The position numbers and the translations under genes were made by a program. A stretch of DNA of 64,000 bases. Origin: Candidatus Bathyarchaeia archaeon (GTDB taxonomy: Archaea; Thermoproteota; Bathyarchaeia; Bathyarchaeales; Bathycorpusculaceae). Below are positions 15,777 through 54,544 of the stretch, piece by piece. The DNA lies in assembly GCA_049521795.1 (NCBI GenBank), contig JBEKOM010000004.1:81261-145260 (forward strand), given 5' to 3'. Below the pieces are notes generated by a model that was not told the DNA's origin, made no database searches, and saw nothing but the letters and a program-made list of their open reading frames with translations. Each line of letters starts with the position of its first letter. Within the stretch, counting starts at the first letter, position 1.

Positions 15777-16346
15777 ATGCCGAAGACAAAACCGACGATC
15801 CGCATCCAAAATATCGTTGCGTCAGCGGCTCTTAACCAGAGGATAAACTTGGGGAAGATAGTTCAGAAGTTCCCCTTTGCCGAGTACAGCCCCCGTGTGT
15901 TCCCTGGACTCGTTTTCCGGCTGAAGAAGCCGAAGACGGCTACTCTCATATTTGAAACGGGCAAGATGGTCTGCACGGGTGCAAAATCGGAGAAAGAAGC
16001 GATTCAAGCGGTGAACAAGGTTACTAAGGAGCTGCGAAGCCATGGGATACCGCTTCCTAACAAGCCTGAGGTTAAAATTCAGAACATCGTCGCTTCTGCA
16101 GAGTTAAACGGAGAAATAGACTTGGAAAACCTTGTCTACAAGCTTCAGAAAGTGATGTATGAGCCGGAGCAGTTTCCGGGAGCAGTTTTCAGGATGGATG
16201 AGCCGAAGGTTGTGTTCCTCATTTTCTCAGCTGGAAAGCTGGTGTGCGTGGGGGCAAAACAGGAGGGAGACGTCTACGAAGCGGTCGGCAAGCTTCAGCA
16301 GCTACTGGAGGAGAAGGAACTCATCTTTTATCCGCCTGATGCATGA
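15777..16346 (+). CDS. tbp: TATA-box binding protein, paralog A
   Basis: Two repeats IQNIVAS..FPG..FR..LIF..GK.VC.GAK. Confidence 0.95.
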   Translation: MPKTKPTIRIQNIVASAALNQRINLGKIVQKFPFAEYSPRVFPGLVFRLKKPKTATLIFETGKMVCTGAKSEKEAIQAVNKVTKELRSHGIPLPNKPEVKIQNIVASAELNGEIDLENLVYKLQKVMYEPEQFPGAVFRMDEPKVVFLIFSAGKLVCVGAKQEGDVYEAVGKLQQLLEEKELIFYPPDA

Positions 16347-25911: not shown

Positions 25912-26479
25912 GAACAGTCACACTCGACCATCCACGGTTGCTTTCTGATTCTTAAATAAGTTGCGGACACCGCTATCGATCCCAGTTGGACAGTGATAGC
26001 TTTGACTGTTCAAGGCGACGCCGTCCTCCTCTTCTTGAGGATAATGAGCTTTGGACGCGCAATTCCAAGTGAGGGCGATAAGGTTTCCATAATTCTTATT
26101 TGCGTACAAGCGCACAGAGTACATTGGGCTGGCGAGTCGGTGTGTGGCTTTCGAGCCTCGACGAGAGAGGCTTGAGGAAACTCCGCCCACAAGTAGAGTT
26201 GCAGCGTCCGCAAGGACGCAAGGTGAGAACCTTGGCTCCAGAGCAGAAACGAAACGTCCGCTCAGCAAGTGACGGTGATGCATGTTAAGTTGTTGAGGAT
26301 GCTGAGTGCGAAGCGATGAAACGGCTGACCTGCAAGTGGAAAGGGCAAGCAGACGCTGATGAAGAGTCTACCGGAAGCGCGGGTAGCCCGATTAGCCGAA
26401 TGCCACAAAGAACAAAAGGCGGGTTACGACCAACACGCCAGCTCTACAAGCAACCCGCCACCCCGACAACGTAACTGAC

Positions 26480-27370
26480 ATGAATAAGAACGGCATCCTT
26501 GCCCAATTCTTGATCCATTGTCAAAAAACTGCCTTGTCCGAAGAAACCATCAACACCAAATACAAAGTTCTCAGAGTAATGCTCACTAATAACGTCAACC
26601 TAAACGACTCTGACCAAGTTAAGATTTTCATTCACAACCGCAAACAATGGAGTAACGGACACAAAAGCATAGCCGTATTTGCCTATGATGAATACTGCAA
26701 AATGAAAGAAATCCAATGGACTCCGCCAGAATATCCCAAAAACGAGACTCTACCATTCGTTCCAACTGAAAAAGAAATAGACGCACTCATAAACGGAACA
26801 AGTACAAAAGTATCCATTACACTGCAAGCACTAAAAGAAACAGCGTTCCGTATCGGCGAACTCTGGAGATGTAAATGGACAGACATCGACGAAGAAAAAT
26901 CAACCCTGAAATGTAATCAGCCCGAAAAGAAATGTGCTCCAAGGGAAGTGCGAATCTCAAGTAAATTGATCGCAAGATTCAACCTTCTACCAAAAACCAA
27001 CGAGTATATATTCGGTAAAACGCGCATAAGTGCAACTCGAACAACTTTCTGCAACCAACGTAATAGCCTCGCCAGAAAACTCAACAACCCAAGACTCAAA
27101 CAAATACATTTTCATACCTTTAGACACTACCACGCCACTAGACTCTACAATGAAACAAAAAGTCTTATAGAAGTACAAGCTCGCCTTGGACATCGAAACA
27201 TAAACTCAACCATGGTCCATACTCATATTGTACAATTCGATGAAGAGAGCCAAAACTATCATCATGCAATAGCTCGCAATGAAAAGGAAGCTGGCGAACT
27301 AATAGACAACGGATGGACGTACATCTGCACAACCCCACAGAATGTAATGATGTTCCGAAAACGCAAATAG
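26480..27370 (+). mobile_element. Tyrosine recombinase/integrase, probably inactive (His at the catalytic Tyr position)
   Basis: FRIGE, HTFRH, LGH motifs; STMVHTH where STxxYTH is expected; A/C-rich composition unlike the core genes. Confidence 0.9.
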
Positions 27371-28107: not shown

Positions 28108-28156
28108 AGAGAGAAAGCTTCATCATACAATTACAGCGCTCCAGCAATATATTGGC

Positions 28157-28194
28157 TCGTGAGCCGTTCGGCTCACTCGCACGTTCCAGACGAT
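28157..28194 (+). repeat. 38-bp hairpin-containing direct repeat, copy 1
   Basis: TCGTGAGCCGTTCGGCTCACTCGCACGTTCCAGACGAT, identical to 29256-29293. Confidence 0.92.
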
Positions 28195-28265
28195 ACGTCA
28201 CAAACAGCCGAGCGCGCGCTAGAAAAAACTCTTTTATAATGAGATACCACTTTAGTCCATGGAAG

Positions 28266-28924: not shown

Positions 28925-29255
28925 GCCCCAAGAAAGAGCTTTGCAAAACTCTTTTTCTCTTTTTTCCATAAAGTTGGCTTCTTTAATGAAATGAAAGAAA
29001 GACGCGTCAGCTTTGGATATTATTGGCTTCCTCCATTAATGCGAAAGAAATATGTTTTAGTTTGTTTATTTATCGTTAATTTGTAGCTGAGATTCATGCC
29101 GAGTGTAATGAAACGTAAACAAAAGAATACTCAAATCGCACAACAGAAAAAGAAAGAACGAGATAAAGAAGCGAAAAAGAAACAGTTGAGACAGCAACTT
29201 CCTGCCAAGGGCAAGAAACGTTAAAGCCACTAAAGGAGCGCGCGCTCATCTTGGA

Positions 29256-29293
29256 TCGTGAGCCGTTCGGCTCACTCGCACGTTCCAGACGAT
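29256..29293 (+). repeat. 38-bp hairpin-containing direct repeat, copy 2
   Basis: Identical to 28157-28194. Confidence 0.92.
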
Positions 29294-29812
29294 GAGTCAA
29301 AGCCAAACCAACCGCACAATAAGCATTTCCGCCTGTCGCGCTCGCATCACGCTCGCGCTCCCACCCACAAAAACTCAAAACAATAACTAGCAGACGCTTA
29401 TCAGGTAAGGATAAGACTTTGCCCTCAGACTGTGCAGTTTTCTCGTCCCCCCTGTTTTTTTCAGTAACGTTTTTGGTAATGTTGTGTGGTAACAAGTCTT
29501 GAAGAAGCGGACAGGCGTGGGGAACAAGACTTCAGCTCTACACCGTAACGAACCAGCACTACTATCCTAATAGCGTTTTTTTCCTAAGCATTCCATTCTA
29601 GATCTCTTCATGGTTTTCTTGGCTGTACTCTCTATTGTCCGCTTCCACCCTGACGCTAAGGGGTCCGATTCTTGCAAGTGGCGGTAGGATATGAGACAGC
29701 AATTGCTCTGCACTTAGTGGGCGAAGTGTACCATTCAGACTGATCTGCGTCCAATCAGTCTTTTCTTTGCGATATTTCTGTGTCCAGCCGTGTTTGGTCG
29801 TGCGCGCGTGCT

Positions 29813-37495: not shown

Positions 37496-37816
37496 AATCG
37501 TGAAGAAGACAGCGAGAAAAGCTGCATGGCGTTTTCCGATGAAGGATTGTTACTTTCACGGTTCGAGCCGGGTGCTCTCTCGCTCTCACACCCTCCCCCC
37601 CGGGTATCCTATATGACCCAAATATGGTTAGGTAGTCAGAAATGACTATCCGCATATGGTTCAAGAGCAGAGTTGCACTAGCTACTGCCCGAAAGAATTA
37701 AGGAACACGCTAGCGCGCTAGGAGAAGAAAAAGAAAAGATGGCTTATTTTTGACCCATCGCCTGGGCTGTCGCAAGGTATTTATGTATGCAATTGATATC
37801 TTTTGTATACGGTGAC

Positions 37817-38665: not shown

Positions 38666-38817
38666 GCGCGCTGGCTTGTCCCTAAATTCGAAAAAAAAAG
38701 TAACTGAAAGCATATACATTTCGCATATACGTTTTGCATATACAGTTGACGAGCATTGTTGAAAACGGTGAGGCTGTTCACGTCGGCTGCCGAGCTGCGT
38801 GGACTGTTCAAGTGCGC
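38666..38817 (+). repeat. Conserved ~150-bp noncoding element, copy 1
   Basis: GCATATAC at 38710, 38723, 38736, then GAGCATTGTTGAAAACGGTGAGGCTG...GGACTGTTCAAGTGCGC. Confidence 0.85.
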
Positions 38818-38879
38818 AATGAGTCGATAGACTCAACAAAAAACGCACGCTGAGAATGAACAATGCCCAACGATTGAGG

Positions 38880-38972
38880 CTACTTCTTCAATCGTTTCTC
38901 TTTGTGCTTTCTTCTTTTCTCTTCTCTTTCCTTTTTAGTCATTGGTTTCTTTTTAGTGGCTCCAGTGCTCAA
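38880..38972 (-). CDS. 30-aa Lys/Arg-rich microprotein, paralog 2
   Basis: MSTGATKKKPMTKKEREEKRRKHKEKRLKK with GGTGA RBS; homologous to 28832-28924. Confidence 0.65.
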   Translation of the reverse strand: MSTGATKKKPMTKKEREEKRRKHKEKRLKK

Positions 38973-39285
38973 TTCAATCACCACGCTCAAATAGTCAGAA
39001 TAGGGAATTAAGTTTTTGCGCGCGCTCTGGCTAATGCGCGTGCTTCTTCCAGTCTCCTCACTTTTTTAACGTTGCTCCTTCCATGTTTCCATGTTCCTCG
39101 GCTTTTCATTCTTTTCAAGAATCGTTCTTTTTTCGCCTGCTTTTTCCTCGATCGGTCCAAACAAATCTTCCTTCCCAGAATCAGAAAGTAACAACAAACA
39201 AGGATTATAACCTTTCACCTGAATAATCCGACAGAATCCAAGACTTAATGAGAAAGAAGTTCATTAGAGTATTGAGAGTCTGTTT

Positions 39286-39399
39286 ATGAGCAGGCGTAGA
39301 CGGTTTGACAGGCTTGAATGTCAGAATTGCATTTACAAGAGCAGCACGTACTGTTGGAGACAATGTCCGTACAACATCTGGAAGACGGAAGAATACTAA
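39286..39399 (+). CDS. 37-aa Cys-rich microprotein
   Basis: MSRRRRFDRLECQNCIYKSSTYCWRQCPYNIWKTEEY, CxxC-x7-CxxxC. Confidence 0.5.
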   Translation: MSRRRRFDRLECQNCIYKSSTYCWRQCPYNIWKTEEY

Positions 39400-39601
39400 G
39401 TCTCGTGCGGTTGCTTCTTAGCTGCAGGAGCCTGAGTTGTGTTCTCATCGGCTACACGTTCGAATAGCCTTCCGCGCGCTGTGAGACGCCTAGAGAACTG
39501 AATGAGATTTAAGATAAAGCCGATGCCTATATCTTAGGAGCTCCATTGTACTGTTTGGATGTAAATGGTTTAATGAGGACTGAAGGAATGGGAGTGGGAA
39601 C

Positions 39602-39895
39602 ATGATTTCGTCCAAGGCGAAAAATCGAATGAAGCGTGAGCTAGCCTTAGGGAAGCCAACAATATGGGTTGGTAAGGAGGGAGCGTCGCCGCAGACGATG
39701 AATGAGATTTCTAGGCAGTTGGAGAAGAGGAAAATGGTGAAAGTCCAAATATTGAATAGCGCGCTTGTGAATGAGAGCGCCAAAGACATCGCGTCAAAAA
39801 CAGCTCAGCAAACAGGATCCGTTTTAATCGATGTTCGAGGCCACACTTTCATACTGCATAAGCCTCGCAAAAAGAGAAGTGAAAAGCCTCCGTGA
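39602..39895 (+). CDS. yhbY: YhbY/CRM RNA-binding protein
   Basis: KPTIWVGKEG, EI..QL....MVKV, LIDVRG.TFIL. Confidence 0.88.
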   Translation: MISSKAKNRMKRELALGKPTIWVGKEGASPQTMNEISRQLEKRKMVKVQILNSALVNESAKDIASKTAQQTGSVLIDVRGHTFILHKPRKKRSEKPP

Positions 39896-40378
39896 GAGGA
39901 CCGTTTAAAGGGTTTTGAAAGGGATTGGATTGTGATAATCTTGTTAGGGAAGGTTCAAAAACACCCACTTCGTTCATGCCTTTGACCTTGCCTTCATGAA
40001 CCTGCCTCCGTCAAGAGATCCTAAAATGGCTGACGCATCCATTGACAAAGGCGCGCGCGTCTTTCTTGATGAGCATGACCATTCTGACTGAGTGTGCTCT
40101 TTTCATCCTCTTCAACTATCGAACAGCCTAGCGCGCGCACTATCTTACTCTCTTGTTTCTCCGAAGCAAGCGTTTGTTTGGGAGTTTTGGTTTCTTCACA
40201 CGTTTTGCATCCGTCGCAGCCAAGACTAGACCCTCAAGACAGTTTTGACCCTCGTTTCTCTTAAAGCTACTGTACAGCGCGCTCTAATGATTGTGGAGAC
40301 GACTTACAAATTTAGCGCGCTGGATCGATAGGCATGCGGAACATGCTAGAAATCGGCTATTAACCCGAAAATCTTGCA

Positions 40379-40570
40379 TTAGGGTTTAGTGCGGGCGGCG
40401 CTTGGCTTCTTTACCCATTCTATTTTAGTAGAGTAGGCTTCACGCAATTGTGGAGAAGTAATGGGTTTCCATTCTTTGGCCACTGCAAGCATTCGACTTT
40501 TGGATTTGCTAGTCTTGTCTTTTCGTTTGGGCTTTTGTTTCCCTCTCGGTTTGTAATGTTCAGGTTTCAT
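40379..40570 (-). CDS. Small basic hypothetical protein
   Basis: Lys-rich ORF filling the segment between GC motifs at 40315 and 40636. Confidence 0.5.
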   Translation of the reverse strand: MKPEHYKPRGKQKPKRKDKTSKSKSRMLAVAKEWKPITSPQLREAYSTKIEWVKKPSAARTKP

Positions 40571-41030
40571 GTTCGATCTCCGCTGGTTCAAGCTTAGATA
40601 TCTAACATATAGGAGTTTTGTAACCTTTTGATTTAGCGCGCTACTAACAAAGGGTTGATACTGGCTATTTCCATGACCGAAAGCAACCTGCGTGTGTCAT
40701 CTATTTTTTGAGCTCTGCGACTAGCAGATGTAGATTGGTTTTCCCTGTGTTCTCGGCTTCATGTGATCGTGCCTTGAGGAAGAGCCTCTTGGCCGCTTTT
40801 GTGTCCAAAACATCTGTTTTTCCTGAGGATGTCAGTTTTAGTTTGCCACCTTAGCGCTCGAATCCGGGACAAGGGAACTGCAGGAAAATGTCCTCATGAT
40901 GCTCTGTTGGTTAATCGGTTTATAAGGAAGTGTGTGCATTATGGGGCAGTAGCGTTCTGTTGTTGACGGACGAGAAGAACACAGCAACGTTGCACGACAC
41001 AATCAATGATGAAAGGGGTGATAGAAAGAA

Positions 41031-41315
41031 ATGGCTGAAGAATCTGCAATTGTTTTCATTGGAAGTAAACCACCAATGGACTATGTTCTAGCAGTTATGA
41101 CAAGACTATCGGCTGGCAATGCTAAGGAAGTAGTTTTGAAGGCAAGAGGACAGGCGATCACTACGGCTGTTGATGTGGCTGAAATAACCAGAAATCGCTT
41201 CCTGAAGGACCTGAAAGTGAGCAAGATAGCTGTAGGAACAGAGGAGATGCCGGCAAGAGAAGGCGAGAACAGGTCACGGATGGTTTCAATAATAGAAATA
41301 ACCCTTGCAAAATAG
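41031..41315 (+). CDS. albA: Alba chromatin/RNA-binding protein
   Basis: [35 protein letters not shown]. Confidence 0.95.
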
Positions 41316-41386
41316 CAGGAAACCTTGCGAAACACGCGTGCAATTATAGTGAGAGAATGTTTAGATACGGGTAACGATGAAGAACA

Positions 41387-42637
41387 ATGAAACTTGCTGT
41401 TCTGGTCTGGGAGTATCCACCGAGGATCGTCGGTGGCTTGGGAACCTACTCGGCTGAAATAACTCGCCAGTTTGTTCTCACGGACAATGATGTTACAGTT
41501 TTCACGATGAATGATGATGCAAATGCTTTGCCGACGCGTGAGATTTGGCACGGTATCGAAATCCACAGGCCGCTGCACATTGACATTTCTGACTCGTTGC
41601 CCGATGTTGTTGCAGAAGACCTACGGAAATGGGGTAGTGGGTTACAGTGGTTTTCAAAGATCCTCGTTTATAATTATCTGAGCGCTGCAAAACTCGTGAA
41701 TGAGCTGATAAGAAAAGAACGCATCAAATTCGACCTTGTCGTTGCTCATGACTGGCTTTCAGGTATAGGTGGAATGGCTGTTAAGAAAGAGGCAGGACTT
41801 CCTTTTGCGTTTCACGTTCACTCGACAGAGAAAGGGAGGACGCTTGGAAAGGGCTCGGTTACGGTGAGCAACATTGAACTTCACGTTGCTAGAGCGGCTG
41901 ACCTTATCGTGACAGTTTCTTATGCGATGAAGGATGAGCTGGTGGGCCTAGGTTGTCCAAAAGAAAAGATTCAGGTTGCTTACAACGGGGTCGACCCGAA
42001 GAAGTACGACCCCGCAACAGTGACGTCTGAGCAGATCAAGAAGGTCAGAGAATTGTATGGTATCAAAGACGATGAGTACATGATTCTTTTTATAGGTCGA
42101 CTCGCCGGTATGAAAGGTGTTGATAAACTGATTATGGCTTTGCCGCATGTTTTGCAGAAGAATCCTAAGGCGAAGCTTGTTATCGTTGGTCTTGGCGACT
42201 TGCAGGAATACTTGATGAATCTGGTGAAAGCTACGAAGATGAGTGATTTCGTGAAGTTCAGGTTCGAATTCATTCCCGAGGAAGAACGTATTCTTCATTA
42301 TGCTGCATGTGACGTTGCAGTTTTCCCAAGTTTCTATGAGCCCTTCGGAATAGTCGTTCTGGAGGCAATGAGTATGGAGCGACCAGTTGTCATCGGTGCA
42401 GCCGGCATCAGCGGCATGCGAGAAATAGTCGTGTATTACGGCGAAGACCAGTGCGGTTACCACATAGATCCAAACAACCCGTCCGACATAGCTTGGGGCA
42501 TAAACAGCGTCTTGGAAAACGATGAGAAGAGAAAGTGGCTGGGCAAAAACGGCAGAAAGCGGGTCTTGAACGAGTTCACGTGGGACAAGATAGCTGAAAA
42601 AACATTGGGGCTTTATGAACAGATCATCAAACGCTAA
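41387..42637 (+). CDS. Glycosyltransferase family 4 (glycogen-synthase-like)
   Basis: WEYPPRIVGGLG, HDW, HSTE.GR, PSFYEPFGIV.LEAM. Confidence 0.92.
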   Translation: MKLAVLVWEYPPRIVGGLGTYSAEITRQFVLTDNDVTVFTMNDDANALPTREIWHGIEIHRPLHIDISDSLPDVVAEDLRKWGSGLQWFSKILVYNYLSAAKLVNELIRKERIKFDLVVAHDWLSGIGGMAVKKEAGLPFAFHVHSTEKGRTLGKGSVTVSNIELHVARAADLIVTVSYAMKDELVGLGCPKEKIQVAYNGVDPKKYDPATVTSEQIKKVRELYGIKDDEYMILFIGRLAGMKGVDKLIMALPHVLQKNPKAKLVIVGLGDLQEYLMNLVKATKMSDFVKFRFEFIPEEERILHYAACDVAVFPSFYEPFGIVVLEAMSMERPVVIGAAGISGMREIVVYYGEDQCGYHIDPNNPSDIAWGINSVLENDEKRKWLGKNGRKRVLNEFTWDKIAEKTLGLYEQIIKR

Positions 42638-42642
42638 GCTTG

Positions 42643-42793
42643 ACGCGCTGGCTCGTCGTTAAATTTGCTGATATTTGTTTTTTAAGAGCTTATACGTTTT
42701 GCTTATACACTTTGTATATACACTTAACATGCATCATTGAGAACGGTGAAGCTGCTAGGTCGAATGCGAAACCGTATGGACTGTTCAAGTGCA
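42643..42793 (+). repeat. Conserved ~150-bp noncoding element, copy 2
   Basis: GCTTATAC at 42688 and 42701, GTATATAC at 42714, then GCATCATTGAGAACGGTGAAGCTG...GGACTGTTCAAGTGC. Confidence 0.82.
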
Positions 42794-42881
42794 AACGCAC
42801 GATAGAGGGATAAGGGCAGCGCGGCGGTCCAACGTTTAGCCCGGAGTTTTTCGGTGAATTCGTGACTGTTGTTTGAAGTTT

Positions 42882-43442
42882 TTATTCGTAGAATATGAGG
42901 TCTTGTTCTTCCAAGCTGGCGTGAAGCTTGTGCACTGCGTCATAAACGTCCTGTTCTTTCTTCGCTCCGGTGCAGACAAGGTTTCCGCTTGCGAATATCA
43001 GTATGACCACTTTAGGCTCGTCCATCCTGTAGATCAGTCCTGGAAACTGCTCGGGCTCGTACATGGTTTTTACGAGCTTGCCGACTGCCTGTTCCAAGTC
43101 TACTTTTCCGCCTAGGCTTACGGAGGCAACGATGTTCTGAATCTTCAGCTCCGGTTTGCTGATGATGATTATTCCGCTCTTTTTCAACTCTTTAACAACC
43201 GTCAATACGGCCCTGCGGGCTTCTTTTTCGGATTTTGCTCCTGTGCACACCATTTTTCCAGAGTTGAAGATCAGCGTGGCCGTCTTCGGTCTCTTAAGCC
43301 TGAACACAAGTCCAGGAAACTGTTCTGGACGATATTCTACGCCTGGGTAACTCTTCACGATAGCGTTCAAGTCAATTCTCTGGTTTAACGTGGCAGAAGC
43401 AACGACGTTTTGAATTTTTATTATGGCTTTAGTCTTCGGCAT
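42882..43442 (-). CDS. tbp: TATA-box binding protein, paralog B
   Basis: IQNVVAS, YRPEQFPGLVFR, YEPEQFPGLIYR, LIF.SG..VCTGAK. Confidence 0.95.
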   Translation of the reverse strand: MPKTKAIIKIQNVVASATLNQRIDLNAIVKSYPGVEYRPEQFPGLVFRLKRPKTATLIFNSGKMVCTGAKSEKEARRAVLTVVKELKKSGIIIISKPELKIQNIVASVSLGGKVDLEQAVGKLVKTMYEPEQFPGLIYRMDEPKVVILIFASGNLVCTGAKKEQDVYDAVHKLHASLEEQDLIFYE

Positions 43443-44139
43443 TAAAAACCACTTCTTCTTTTTTAATGGTGCGCGCGCATTCGATGATGCTCAAGCTTCC
43501 GGTTCTTCCCAGTCGCAGTTGCCTTTCGCCGCTGAACCAGGTTACTTTGCCGTTTTTGATGTCAACTACGTCGCCCTTGTGCACCATGCTGATCTGTTGG
43601 TTCCATAAACTCATTTTCATCGACCCAGTTTCGTCTTCGATAACTGCGTTTGATATAGAAGCAGTCGTTCCATATCTCGTGTAGACGATTTTAGATTCTG
43701 GAATCTCAAGCACTTCTACTTTGAGGCTGACTTTTTTCATTCCGACTTTCAAGTCACCAATCTTCGAGGTTACACCCTCCAAATTCTTGAATGAGGAACT
43801 TCTGGCCAAAATTGCTTCCGTGATGCTTCCGAGCTGATTCTCTCCTTGCAAGATGGCAATCGATATCGGAAATTGAGCTATAACCTTCCGCGAACGCTTC
43901 GGACCTTTGCTAAAAAGAAAGATCGCTGAATTCTTCGTCCTCTTACGACACTTTATAGCCAACTGCGCACATTCTGACCCGTCGTGATTCCAAGCTTCGA
44001 CAATACGAGCGAAGAATTCACTCGAATCAACCTTATGCAGCAATCCGATTCTGGCAAGGCTCTCCAGAATCCTTCCATCCTTGTACGAAGGCCTGCTGCT
44101 AAGAGGCCTGCCTCTACCTCTCCAAATCTGCTTAGCCAT
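43429..44139 (-). CDS. OB-fold (SSB/RPA-like) protein with an unknown N-terminal domain
   Basis: C-terminal KIGDLK.GM..V, VYTRYG, DETG...LW, GDVV.I.NG.V..F.GE.QL; overlaps the tbp start. Confidence 0.8.
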   Translation of the reverse strand: MAKQIWRGRGRPLSSRPSYKDGRILESLARIGLLHKVDSSEFFARIVEAWNHDGSECAQLAIKCRKRTKNSAIFLFSKGPKRSRKVIAQFPISIAILQGENQLGSITEAILARSSSFKNLEGVTSKIGDLKVGMKKVSLKVEVLEIPESKIVYTRYGTTASISNAVIEDETGSMKMSLWNQQISMVHKGDVVDIKNGKVTWFSGERQLRLGRTGSLSIIECARTIKKEEVVFNAED

Positions 44140-44430
44140 CTAACTTGTTTCCACTCTTGTTTTTTTCACTCGACAAATCCATCGCTAAAACAATAGATCT
44201 GCAATGTGCATCTCAATACTGTCAATACCACTTATATAGCTTAGCTGCTGGGCGTAACATTTTATGGTTATCGAAGTCGCCTGAGGTACGCTCTAGCGTT
44301 TGGCGCGTTCTAGCTGAGCAGTTCGATCCTTGCGCCCATTGCTTGTCCAAGCGCGCCTTCGTGGAATTTGGCTGTGACAACGCGCGCTAGATAAATCATA
44401 CAATATTATCCCCTGCAGGGGGATCGAAAG

Positions 44431-46074
44431 CTATGCTTCTAAGCTGGAAAGGAGTTTCTTTATGCCTCGCATGCAATAGTAGCGCGCCGACACAAGAAGC
44501 AATGTTCCAACTGCCGCTGTCAAGACAATCGTCAACAAGGCCGACCCGGTTGGGCCGCCTCCAAACATGGTCAAGAACCCCGTGCCTTCGTACAGTATCA
44601 GAGGAGTTAGAGTCGCCACGGTTGCCAAGCCGCCTAATGCGAAGGCCATTATGAATCCTGTGAACGTGAGGTATCTTGCTCTTGGTCCCACGTTGAAGCT
44701 GGGATATCGTGAGCCTGTTCCGAGTCCCACATATCCTTGCACTATCATGTTGAAGATTGCGGCAATCAACGTGGCCAGGAATATGCCCGCGGCAACAGGA
44801 GCCAGGAACTGCAGAAGTGAGGCGAGGGCCAAGATTGCAGCGCCTGAAAGAACCCATGGGAGAAAGAGTTTTCCAAGGACCAGTTCGTCAGCTGAGATGG
44901 GAAGCATGTAGATGTTGGCGATGGAGGTTCCTTCCTGTCCTATGCTGATGGAAGAGAGCATCATGGGCAGAATGAGGGATACTTCAGCGAGTAGCACCAA
45001 GCTTATGCCCGACACGCCGGCAGTCCTTGAGTTCGCGCCACTTGTCAACACTGGGAGCAAGGAGGACACTACGAGCAACACGGGTATGGCGAGGAATCTT
45101 GCCATTTCTCTTCGTCTTGCAAGAGACCTTAACTCTTTCGAGGCTATGGCAAACGCCACTGGGTTTAGCCACAGGAATGATTTGCCTTGAGGAATGTAAG
45201 TTGTTGAAGTGGACACGGTGATGGTGACGGGTACGGGTGACCAGTACTTGGCTCTTAGTTGAGTTGCGGCTTCGAAGATCAGGAAGGTGAATAAGAAGGA
45301 AAGCAGGGCAAAAACGGTTGCTCTTATTGCATCCGAAGTTAGGAAGGAAACGACGGCGGCCGAGGGCCAGATAAAGGGCACGAACCAGGCCAAGTTGACG
45401 CCCTGGACGATGCCTGAAAGGGCGATGTAAAGGATGTATGGGTTAAAGGCTATCTGCAACGCGACGAGCAGAACGATTACTAAAAGGATGCGGAGGATGA
45501 TGCCTAGTCTTCCGCTCTTCTTGTAAAGCGTTGTGGAGATGCGGTTCATCACGGACCTCAACACTTCCACTATAACTGCTCCCCAAACGTAGGCGACGAT
45601 GGAGACCAAGATGAGGAACGGAACGACCGAGAGCATGCCGATGTTCAGGGCAAGCGGTATGGTGACGCCTAGACCGATGAACAGGAGAGGCGAGTAGGTG
45701 AACAGGACCGAAACGCTTGACGCCACGACGTATTCTCCCGGAGACACTGGAAGCCAATTCACCGCTTCGCTTGAAGCAAGACCGCTGCCCTGCCCGAGTT
45801 CAAACAGTATTCCAGCCAAGGTGACGGCCGAAGTGAGAATGACCGGGAGCACGATGAGGGACTGAACTGAAAGCGTATGAAGCGAACTCGTGAATTCAGA
45901 CGGGACCTGAGGGAGAGCATACAGGAGCAGCGCGAACGGAGCGGCAAAGAGAGCTATGTCTATGGATAACAGAACTGCGGGGTTTGAGAGGCGGCTTCTG
46001 CGTCCAAAGCGGCTCGCTCTGAAGTAGGATTTGAAGAGAACACTTGCGAGGCTGACGACCGTTGACCGGTTCAA
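44431..46074 (-). CDS. ABC-2 type exporter permease
   Basis: About 12-14 TM helices, LPVS and KELR..R, EG....LPI motifs; follows the ATPase. Confidence 0.85.
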   Translation of the reverse strand: MNRSTVVSLASVLFKSYFRASRFGRRSRLSNPAVLLSIDIALFAAPFALLLYALPQVPSEFTSSLHTLSVQSLIVLPVILTSAVTLAGILFELGQGSGLASSEAVNWLPVSPGEYVVASSVSVLFTYSPLLFIGLGVTIPLALNIGMLSVVPFLILVSIVAYVWGAVIVEVLRSVMNRISTTLYKKSGRLGIILRILLVIVLLVALQIAFNPYILYIALSGIVQGVNLAWFVPFIWPSAAVVSFLTSDAIRATVFALLSFLFTFLIFEAATQLRAKYWSPVPVTITVSTSTTYIPQGKSFLWLNPVAFAIASKELRSLARRREMARFLAIPVLLVVSSLLPVLTSGANSRTAGVSGISLVLLAEVSLILPMMLSSISIGQEGTSIANIYMLPISADELVLGKLFLPWVLSGAAILALASLLQFLAPVAAGIFLATLIAAIFNMIVQGYVGLGTGSRYPSFNVGPRARYLTFTGFIMAFALGGLATVATLTPLILYEGTGFLTMFGGGPTGSALLTIVLTAAVGTLLLVSARYYCMRGIKKLLSSLEA

Positions 46075-46835
46075 AGCTTCAGTGCCTCAACGATCTTCTC
46101 AGTGTCTTCGCTTCCGGTTAGCTTCAGGAAAGTGTCTTCCAACGTGGAGCCAGGCATACCAGCCTTTGACCTCAGTTCCTGCACCGTGCCCTCGGCGATA
46201 ACGCTTCCCTCGTTCATGATAGTGATCGTGTTGCACATGGCCTCTGCAATTTCAAGAACGTGCGTGCTGAAGAGAATTGAGACGCCTTCGCCGGCTAGGC
46301 GCTGAAGGATGTCCTTAACGATCCTGGCTGACCTCGGGTCTAAACCGTTCAAAGCTTCATCCATTATGAGCACGCGTGGACGGTGAAGAAGAGCCGCTGT
46401 GATCGCTATTTTCTGTTTCATTCCTTGGGAGAAGCCGCTCATGACGTCGTTGACTTGATTGCTCATCTGTAGCGCGTTGAGTAGCTCGTCAACCTTCTCT
46501 CGCCTGGTCTTCAGGTCGATGCCGTACGCTGTGCCTACGAAGTCTAAGTATTCTGAAGCCGTCAGGTATTCATAGAGATATGGCGATTCTGGAACGTAGC
46601 CTACGAGTCTTTTCGCTTCGATGGGTTGCCGGAGCACGTCTATGCCGCAGAGGCTGATCTTGCCTTGATCAGGCTTGACTATGCTCATGACCATCTTCAT
46701 CGTCGTGCTCTTCCCCGACCCGTTGGGGCCTAGAAGGCCGTGAACTTTGCCGGGCAGCACGTTCAGCGTCAGGCCTTTTACGGCAACGTTGTCGCCGAAG
46801 GATTTCGTAACTGATTCTAGCATTATTCCGTCCAT
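46071..46835 (-). CDS. ABC transporter ATP-binding protein
   Basis: GPNGSGKST, FSQGMKQK, MDE..NGLDP, STH. Confidence 0.93.
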   Translation of the reverse strand: MDGIMLESVTKSFGDNVAVKGLTLNVLPGKVHGLLGPNGSGKSTTMKMVMSIVKPDQGKISLCGIDVLRQPIEAKRLVGYVPESPYLYEYLTASEYLDFVGTAYGIDLKTRREKVDELLNALQMSNQVNDVMSGFSQGMKQKIAITAALLHRPRVLIMDEALNGLDPRSARIVKDILQRLAGEGVSILFSTHVLEIAEAMCNTITIMNEGSVIAEGTVQELRSKAGMPGSTLEDTFLKLTGSEDTEKIVEALKL

Positions 46836-46896
46836 AGGCGGTCTTAGACCCTCATCATCACGGCGGTATATATCCACTTCGTCCTCTTTCGCTACA

Positions 46897-47063
46897 GCGC
46901 GCGAGCTTATCGCGAAAATTTTGCAGAAATTTGAAATTGAAAGCACATACAAAAAGCATATACATTTTGCATATACAGTGTATATACACGGCTTGCGAGC
47001 ATGATTGAGAACTGTGATGCTGTTCAGGTCGGATGCTGAGCTACGTGGCTGTTCAAGTGCGCA
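46897..47063 (+). repeat. Conserved ~150-bp noncoding element, copy 3
   Basis: GCACATAC 46943, GCATATAC 46956 and 46969, GTATATAC 46980, then GAGCATGATTGAGAACTGTGATGCTG...CTGTTCAAGTGCGC. Confidence 0.85.
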
Positions 47064-47071
47064 CGCATATC

Positions 47072-52038: not shown

Positions 52039-52205
52039 CTGCGACCTGAAGATTATACCATCTAGTTATCGTGTTGGAATATAATTCTTTGCCTTAAATA
52101 CACCTGTAAGATAAAACTTTACGCCCAAACCCAAACCCACACACACAAAACATTTCAGCCTATGATTTTGCGGAAAAGTTATAGCTGAACTGCTCGCGCT
52201 AGCGC

Positions 52206-52235
52206 GCTGCCTTGTCCCTATATAACGTGTTGAAG
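52206..52235 (+). repeat. 30-bp direct repeat, copy 1
   Basis: GCTGCCTTGTCCCTATATAACGTGTTGAAG; 28/30 identical to 53932-53961. Confidence 0.88.
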
Positions 52236-53931: not shown

Positions 53932-53961
53932 GCTGCCTTGTCCCGATATTACGTGTTGAAG
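53932..53961 (+). repeat. 30-bp direct repeat, copy 2 (overlaps transposase 3' end)
   Basis: GCTGCCTTGTCCCGATATTACGTGTTGAAG. Confidence 0.88.
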
Positions 53962-54397
53962 TATGTTGGTGAGACTGTCTTGTCGGGTCTTCTGATGTTT
54001 TCTGCTGCTTCTCTGTTTAAGACCAAGCAGAACAGGCTGTAGAGAGCGTAGGACGCGATGTTTCTCAAGCCTCTGACCTTGTTGACGGCTAGGCTCCACT
54101 GCGTCTTTAGGAAGCTGTAGACGGCTTCTATGTGCGGTCTCTTGTGGTACTCTTTTTTCTGGTCTTCCGGCCCGTAGGTTCTGAACTTCTTGTCCACTCT
54201 GAGCACGCCTTTGACGCCGCGCTTCTGGTTTGAGGGGTAAGGAATAACCACTTCGTCGACGACGTCCCTGATTTTTTCGTCGCTGTACTGGCTGTCGGCT
54301 ATCACGCTTCTCAGTTTGGCGGCTGACCGTTTGAGGATTAGCTTCGTCTTCCCAAGCATGCTTGGCGAGTGCTTCTTCTCGTTCTCGTTGGCCGGAG
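53949..54397 (-). mobile_element. C-terminal fragment of a DDE transposase (IS5/IS1182-like)
   Basis: PANENE, IADSQYS, Y.KR..IE...S.LK, VRGL motifs; transposase-like sequence stops at GCGCGCGC 54397. Confidence 0.8.
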
Positions 54398-54544
54398 CGC
54401 GCGCTATGTTATCCAAGTTCAAACTAGCCAAAATGGAGCAAGAACTCTCATTCTTCTCCATTCTAGACTTTTTACCCAATCAAATACAAATTGCTTAAGC
54501 AAGAAAATGTCAACCCAAATAATCTAGCAATAGGCTGGCGCGCG

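Follow-up and report, generated by a model that had tools for sequence, protein, structure and literature searches.

Three noncoding repeats stand in the same orientation on one contig of a Candidatus Bathyarchaeia archaeon (assembly GCA_049521795.1), which raises the question of what kind of element they represent. We analyzed a window of 64,000 nt, i.e., the whole stretch C4:81261-145260 (contig JBEKOM010000004.1) within the 2.44-Mb assembly of 69 contigs. An earlier note on this DNA had described the repeats as 13-bp-spaced boxes followed by a bulged hairpin of about 70 nt, and had offered a recombination site, a mobile-element end, an iteron-type origin, or a promoter with a structured noncoding RNA as explanations. 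Our results indicate that the repeat is almost certainly a MITE (miniature inverted-repeat transposable element), a non-autonomous element with the ends of a DDE insertion sequence (IS). A MITE mobilized by the transposase of this IS, combined with GC scars left in the genome, is very probably the best overall explanation. The candidate scar is the GC octamer GCGCGCGC.

The repeat is a dispersed element with terminal inverted repeats

The three copies do start at positions 38666, 42643 and 46897 of the window, on the same strand. A hidden Markov model (HMM) of these copies gave 24 genomic matches at E<1e-10, the next match reaching only E=0.016, and a rebuilt HMM recovered the same 24 copies, a number far above chance. 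They are dispersed over 9 of the 69 contigs and over both strands (16 plus, 8 minus). The spacing of about 4 kb holds within the window and is not a trait of the family, whose remaining members lie scattered over the plus and minus strands. When intergenic positions were drawn at random, 7% of the draws placed three within 8.4 kb (2% if on the same strand); with octamer sites as the pool, the share was 27% (same strand, 8%).

Both ends are present in 14 of the 24 genomic copies, some of nearly full length and others with internal deletions; a 15th row was not counted because its right end was spurious. The element proved about 30 nt longer than claimed before and closes with a right terminal inverted repeat (TIR) that is an inverted copy of its start. 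At full length it measures about 182 bp, with TIRs tipped by GCGCGC. The copies in the window and the parts of copy 2 are as follows:

38666 to 38818, plus strand: MITE copy 1, with left TIR, spacer, three 13-bp boxes and 3' body; right TIR lost
42643 to 42824, plus strand: MITE copy 2, complete, 182 bp; the window's only complete copy
42643 to 42665, plus strand: left terminal repeat of copy 2, a diverged form of the IS left end
42688 to 42721, plus strand: box array of copy 2 with a 13-bp period (GCTTATAC, GCTTATAC, GTATATAC)
42801 to 42824, plus strand: right terminal repeat of copy 2, a diverged form of the IS right end
46897 to 47069, plus strand: MITE copy 3, with left TIR, four boxes and 3' body; right TIR lost

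We then aligned 35 complete copies, 13 from this genome and 22 from the same-genus genomes G001, G002 and G010, leaving out two short internally deleted rows of this genome. In this alignment, the element spans 166-195 bp and carries an 18-bp TIR with one fixed mismatch; the size rule for MITEs, as given in a survey of archaeal MITEs, is 50-800 bp with TIRs of at least 10-15 bp (10.1101/2024.01.18.576219). Other MITE features were likewise borne out: the element has no transposase or selected open reading frame (ORF), occurs in multiple dispersed copies, shares its ends with an IS, and is present or absent at orthologous sites. In short, a TIR element that shares its ends with a DDE IS is dispersed through the genome and polymorphic between species. 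No direct repeat of at least 3 nt was found outside the tips in any of 57 elements, where 2-nt direct repeats were at chance level, and a duplication of 2-4 bp may be hidden inside the palindromic tips. These tips obscure the exact boundary, and the outer 1-2 bases may be either element or a hidden 2-bp duplication.

The MITE family is apparently undescribed, if of an ordinary kind. Within the open-access literature, ISfinder and closed supplements lying outside the search, we found no description of this element or of the octamer. A survey of 18,091 archaeal MITEs leaves Bathyarchaeia unmentioned in its main text, and its supplements may list these sequences (10.1101/2024.01.18.576219). As described for Sulfolobus solfataricus, the SM1-SM4 MITEs occur in 25-44 copies (PMC10969869). 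Like them, our element is short, noncoding, bounded by TIRs, multi-copy, intergenic and taxon-restricted, and has IS-shared ends; unlike them, to judge from that account, it shows no duplication outside the tips and combines GCGCGC tips with a 13-bp array, a Bathyarchaeia host and a genome-wide octamer.

Copy 2 begins 6 nt downstream of the stop codon of a glycosyltransferase gene and faces a TBP gene. The window contains two TBP-like genes, at 15777-16346 (plus strand) and 42882-43442 (minus strand). The second adjoins Alba, YhbY and SSB-like genes, and further partial copies of this block occur in G001. At locus L156 of G010, compared with C2 of this genome (G000), the MITE and an extra GC run are flanked by an imperfect 9-nt host duplication, unlike at the other copies.

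The ends of the element are those of a DDE insertion sequence

The right end of the element was also found elsewhere in the window, behind the stop codon of a DDE_Tnp_1 fragment (53949-54479) and, on its own, at 52202. The remnant of the partner IS lies about 7 kb from the window repeat. The corresponding features are:

52202 to 52235, minus strand: orphan right end of the partner IS, with tip, TIR and last transposase codons
53932 to 54404, minus strand: partner IS remnant, truncated at a GCGCGCGC seam and retaining the right TIR and 149 C-terminal aa of a DDE_Tnp_1 transposase
54397 to 54404, no strand assigned: GCGCGCGC octamer where the IS remnant breaks off; the window has 16 such runs in all

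With the DDE_Tnp_1 fragment as query we retrieved 79 loci, and the closest transposase relatives came nearly all from Bathyarchaeia records. Those IS loci that share more than 60% identity and have both ends visible measure 1.02-1.11 kb, start with GCGCGCTGGCTTGTCCCTAAATT and end with TAATAAAGGGACAAGGCAGCGCGC, or close variants of these. When the MITE consensus was compared with the first 8 IS rows, its first 23 nt were identical in seven of them and its last 24-26 nt in six, while its interior had no match to the IS set. An association with element ends, suggested before as a check, was thus found: the MITE termini match the ends of a Bathyarchaeia IS of about 1.1 kb. Among the original explanations, the mobile-element end came closest, yet the repeat is a whole non-autonomous element, both ends of which match an IS.

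The IS transposase has 330 aa. DUF772 and DDE_Tnp_1 were detected in all of three proteins, and the three catalytic acids are invariant in a 7-row alignment. Its best NCBIfam matches are IS1182 models, followed by IS5_4. All four proteins scored below the family cut-offs, both with the IS1182 model NF033551 (84.5-166 bits; cut-off 270) and with the best IS5 model, NF033581 (58.6-121 bits; cut-off 140), and the nearest plasmid matches are annotated as IS5 at 24% identity. We regard the partner IS as an unusual, putative IS1182/IS5-like group below the family cut-offs. It resembles the IS1182 family in its DUF772 and DDE_Tnp_1 transposase and differs in protein length, 330 aa as opposed to the 548 aa given for that family (PMC5678879). 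In the same account, IS1272 of the IS1182 family has TIRs, makes no target-site duplication (TSD) and removes target DNA on insertion (PMC5678879), and it may serve as a precedent for these two properties. IS1272 replaces stem-loops of unrelated sequence (PMC5678879); the sites here are instead marked by a fixed GC run, and inspection, by eye only, revealed no stem-loop replacement at insertion sites. Moves of IS without a TSD, at deletions, are reported elsewhere as well (10.1101/2024.06.02.596822).

Two more distant IS subfamilies have other TIRs and the same GCGCGC tips. Sister MITEs of 160-320 bp with GCGCGC-tipped TIRs match these two subfamilies; they are located at about 37520-37718 of the window (minus strand), at C1:547326, C2:3119, C2:17050, C2:56756, C3:70662 and C13:15425, and at other sites. 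Related transposases with GCGC-type ends were seen at loci L082, L097, L086 and L089, in records labelled Methanomethylicia and Patescibacteria, and the latter may be mis-binned.

Filled and empty sites

A locus was counted as filled/empty if one genome carried the element and a second one lacked it while both flanks could be mapped there; this gave 10 loci, and three further, complex loci were left out. Copy 2 is absent at the orthologous site of G001, G009 and G002, where the same flanks are joined by 8 nt (ACGCGCAG, ACGCGTGG and GAGCGGGG, respectively). Including this locus, the empty site consists of 8-9 nt at 5 of the 10 loci, four times GCGCGCGC-like and once decayed at 4 of 8 positions. 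A sixth empty site has 14 nt and begins with an octamer-like run. For the flanks of 25 IS rows, this genome offered no paired orthologous site. Contigs of 4 DNA runs also contain joins without copy 2; with 90% likeness, they may stem from related species, and we left them out of the count.

A possible origin of the GC octamer

Among the hexamers of the genome, GCGCGC is the most strongly over-represented. The octamer GCGCGCGC is 17-fold denser outside than inside ORFs, and outside ORFs there are 149 exact 8-runs compared with 143 6-runs. Octamers are flanked by TA, the same context as that of the IS ends. The decamer AGCGCGCGCT occurs 7-114 times in each of the 11 genomes of the genus and 0-1 times in 28 of 30 others. 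We examined the junctions with 0.4 Mb each of G001 and G002: the flanks of intergenic octamers were collinear in the relative in only 4/34 and 2/20 cases, compared with 107/202 and 97/168 random intergenic control sites. A comparison of length changes, based on 1.2 and 0.79 Mb, comprised 84 collinear comparisons, reciprocal rows included. Here, six sites without a GC run in the relative had gained 6-15 nt net, two showed deletions sealed by a GC run, and many had slips of plus or minus 2. Moreover, an IS remnant on C13, compared by eye with the intact IS, has GC runs at all three of its breaks.

These observations are consistent with the following mechanism. The IS transposase would bind the TIRs and copy the MITE around the genome in trans. 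It would excise the element and insert it elsewhere with a weak preference for TA, in some cases at the cost of target DNA. On excision, about four bases of either GC tip would stay behind at the donor site, and the leftover, self-complementary tip ends would rejoin as GCGCGCGC; such octamers could then be re-used as breakpoints. Cut-and-paste transposition of Tc1/mariner elements, too, leaves a few bases of the transposon ends behind at the donor site, but their transposase family is unrelated and no TA duplication was seen here. We consider it rather probable that the octamer is the excision footprint of this IS/MITE family. The full proposal goes further: the IS1182/IS5-like group, so far undescribed, would move with its MITEs without duplicating the target, every excision would be marked by GCGCGCGC, the seams would seal deletions and be re-used as breakpoints, and the genus would have become a patchwork with hundreds of rearrangement records. 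For this wider claim we see the chances as evenly balanced.

A number of points weigh against the scar model. No movement was observed, and mobility is inferred. This assembly contains four transposase fragments and no intact gene, intact frames being present in G004, G007 and G009. Three of the 10 empty sites have no GC run and one is 4 nt long. An empty site of 8 nt is equally compatible with a scar and with a target that was there before, and for copy 2, with such a site in three relatives, a target is the simplest explanation. An octamer-like run was found in both genomes at 49 of 83 junction halves, and 52 of the 84 collinear comparisons showed no length change. Where junction halves are clean, G follows in the relative in 28/53 cases and GC in 14/53; the seams are therefore partly templated, as predicted by no single simple cut model. 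The ORFs behind the 17-fold difference were called by a crude, length-based caller. Furthermore, no transposase was detected at E<=1e-10 in five of the 10 other genus genomes, all of which carry the decamer. Outside the genus, distant transposase homologues occur in 7 of 30 genomes, six of them with 0-1 decamers, and G024 has nine decamers and no transposase match. From genome to genome, decamer counts do not follow the presence of a transposase.

Several of these points would favor a different origin of the octamer. The MITE would be the same, but GCGCGCGC would be a pre-existing palindrome made by the host, either HIP1-like or by repair; the IS would target its center with no or a 2-bp duplication and excise cleanly. 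This is a possible but less likely explanation. It would account for the 8-nt empty sites at half of the loci, including the three relatives at copy 2, for the octamers common to both genomes, and for decamers in genus genomes where our search found no transposase. HIP1 (GCGATCGC) of cyanobacteria is likewise a lineage-specific, highly over-represented, GC-rich 8-bp palindrome; it is tied to methylation, and HIP sites to methyltransferases, in the account given in PMC4390886, and this genome has one C5-methyltransferase as a candidate cognate enzyme. Unlike HIP1 as described there, however, the octamer is intergenic, coincides with synteny breaks, is sometimes seen as an insertion, and shares its letters with the transposon tips. 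A host-made palindrome also agrees poorly with octamers that form net insertions of 6-15 nt or seal deletions where the relative has no GC run, with octamers inside a broken IS whose intact form has none there, with their mostly non-collinear flanks and enrichment outside ORFs, and with the three filled loci at which the relative has no octamer. The sole match to the C5-cytosine methyltransferase family (PF00145), which bears on this HIP-like alternative, is at C6:18719-19702 (minus strand) in a 683-aa frame.

If the octamer is indeed an excision scar, each of the roughly 190 exact sites per genome would record a past hop or deletion, and genome turnover would become countable in uncultured archaea. 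It would also reveal a route to highly iterated palindromes that does not involve methylation, in effect a HIP1 analogue produced by transposons, and the DDE enzyme would be one after whose action the donor ends are rejoined with a constant signature, adding a mechanism to the poorly studied IS1182/IS5 group. What would set this family apart from an ordinary MITE family is that a transposase clade is linked to a sequence signature of the whole genus. At 330 aa the enzyme is small, intact copies exist in relatives, and the prediction for the donor site is directly testable.

A 52-nt direct repeat of 92% identity was noted at 28149-28200 and 29248-29299 of the window, 1.1 kb apart and beside GC-run seams. 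In many G002 copies of the MITE, an octamer is present inside the spacer.

The internal box array

The GCATATAC-like boxes described before are present at 38710/38723/38736, 42688/42701/42714 and 46943/46956/46969/46980, with a spacing of 13 nt and a single exception of 11 nt, and so are the motifs GCA..TTGARAAC and CTGTTCAAGTGC. In length, the 35 complete copies fall into groups near 169, 182 and 195 bp, i.e., in steps of 13, and each copy has two to four boxes, once five. Orthologous copies differ by one whole box (three versus four). The 13-nt steps and these one-box differences show that the array behaves as a minisatellite, which most likely grows and shrinks by slippage. Slippage explains both the number of boxes and their homogeneity, box variants being homogenized within copies. 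BrickBuilt of Porphyromonas gingivalis has a similar layout, with a tandem repeat between leader and tail and about 20 intergenic copies (PMC4596501), and may be taken as a precedent for a minisatellite inside a MITE. The comparison concerns layout only; the unit has 23 nt there as opposed to 13 nt here, and promoter activity is known for BrickBuilt in that report.

The earlier note had taken the conserved layout as a sign of selection. The layout as such reflects common descent by copying, but the boxes are the least variable part: divergence from the consensus is 4.4% in the boxes, 8-10% in the TIRs, 13% in the 3' body, 20% between boxes and 33% in the spacer. This low variability may reflect some constraint. 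Tentatively, and with rather low probability, the boxes could bind a host protein, their sequence being TATA-like or palindromic (TGYATATACA). The element might even be domesticated as a portable regulatory module, in which a TATA-like or repressor box array and a transcribed RNA tune the neighboring genes and the TIRs are only a vehicle. The low box divergence, the TIR-less, octamer-bounded arrays at several G001 and G002 loci and the promoter activity described for BrickBuilt (PMC4596501) speak for such a module. We nevertheless regard it as improbable: the 24 copies show no orientation bias to neighboring genes (7 convergent, 6 divergent, 7 tandem-same, 4 tandem-opposite), copy 2 is missing in three relatives with the same flanking gene, homogenization within copies is explained by slippage, and the element has no structure signal.

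The array alone, about 70 bp long, bounded by GC runs and without TIRs, was seen at several unrelated loci of G001 and G002 (L138/L149, L139, L151 and L147), with nearly identical breakpoints. In this genome, C8:43276-43334 and C5:9984-10043 have about 60 nt in common, including GCATATAC boxes, without MITE ends; this segment is present in G001 and G002, too.

Fold-back, recombination site and origin

The proposed bulged hairpin was not supported, as there was neither a stability excess nor covariation. For the proposed stem, z ranged from -0.55 to +0.93 in all six strand/copy folds as DNA and from -1.47 to +1.49 in the six folds as RNA. The mean RNA z was -0.35 over 34 of the 35 complete copies, namely those in which both motifs were found. 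Folding of the alignment of 35 copies mainly recovered the pairing of the TIRs. Among 9 proposed stem pairs in 35 copies, we found one two-sided change, in a single divergent row. Rfam gave no match for the element; within the window only RNase P was matched at gathering level, and nothing around copy 2 at E<=1. A structured noncoding RNA, one of the first explanations, was rejected since Rfam gave no match and no stem covaried. We also rejected a coding function: the consensus contains an open frame of 33 codons without sign of selection, the dN/dS-like ratio (nonsynonymous to synonymous changes) being 0.87-1.35 across all six frames, with common frameshifts.

An attC site is characterized by the core pattern RYYYAAC...GTTRRRY with a bottom-strand hairpin. 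The suggestion of an attC-like or other site-specific recombination site, or else an iteron-type replication origin, could draw on the partial complementarity of TTGAAAAC and GTTCAAG, on the regular spacing of the direct repeats, and on 10 tyrosine recombinase matches in the genome. However, the attC core pattern occurs in 1 of 35 copies and the hairpin found no support, no integron integrase exceeded the cut-off in the genome (TIGR02249, best 32.5 bits; cut-off 265), the copies are dispersed and not arranged in a cassette array, and the TIRs are those of a DDE IS. As to an origin, boxes resembling the origin recognition box (ORB), by the ORB consensus pattern, are unlike the element in sequence and lie upstream of cdc6 on C1, with the nearest copy 12 kb away. 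A recombination site or iteron-type origin is thus extremely improbable, and the MITE remains our explanation. The likely replication origin of this genome is at about C1 311,900-312,600, where ORB-like boxes and an AT-rich stretch are found upstream of cdc6. A tyrosine recombinase gene is located at 26480-27370 of the window (plus strand), directly after the RNase P RNA gene (26132-26438).

Distribution

The search for further occurrences was productive: besides the 24 copies of this genome, full-length matches were found in three same-genus genomes (G001, G002 and G010), and four more of the 10 genus genomes had short end matches only. There were no element matches in 30 other relatives. In a class-wide pattern search, 1 of 301 genomes was positive, namely this genome, and none of the other 300, a sample with one other same-genus genome. 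Viral contigs gave 0 matches to the element, and no longer parent cassette with a small gene was among the matches listed. Metagenomes yielded 25 loci, 13 of them with both ends in view. Three copies of the family each occupy a site that is common to this genome and G002; part of the spread therefore predates these species.

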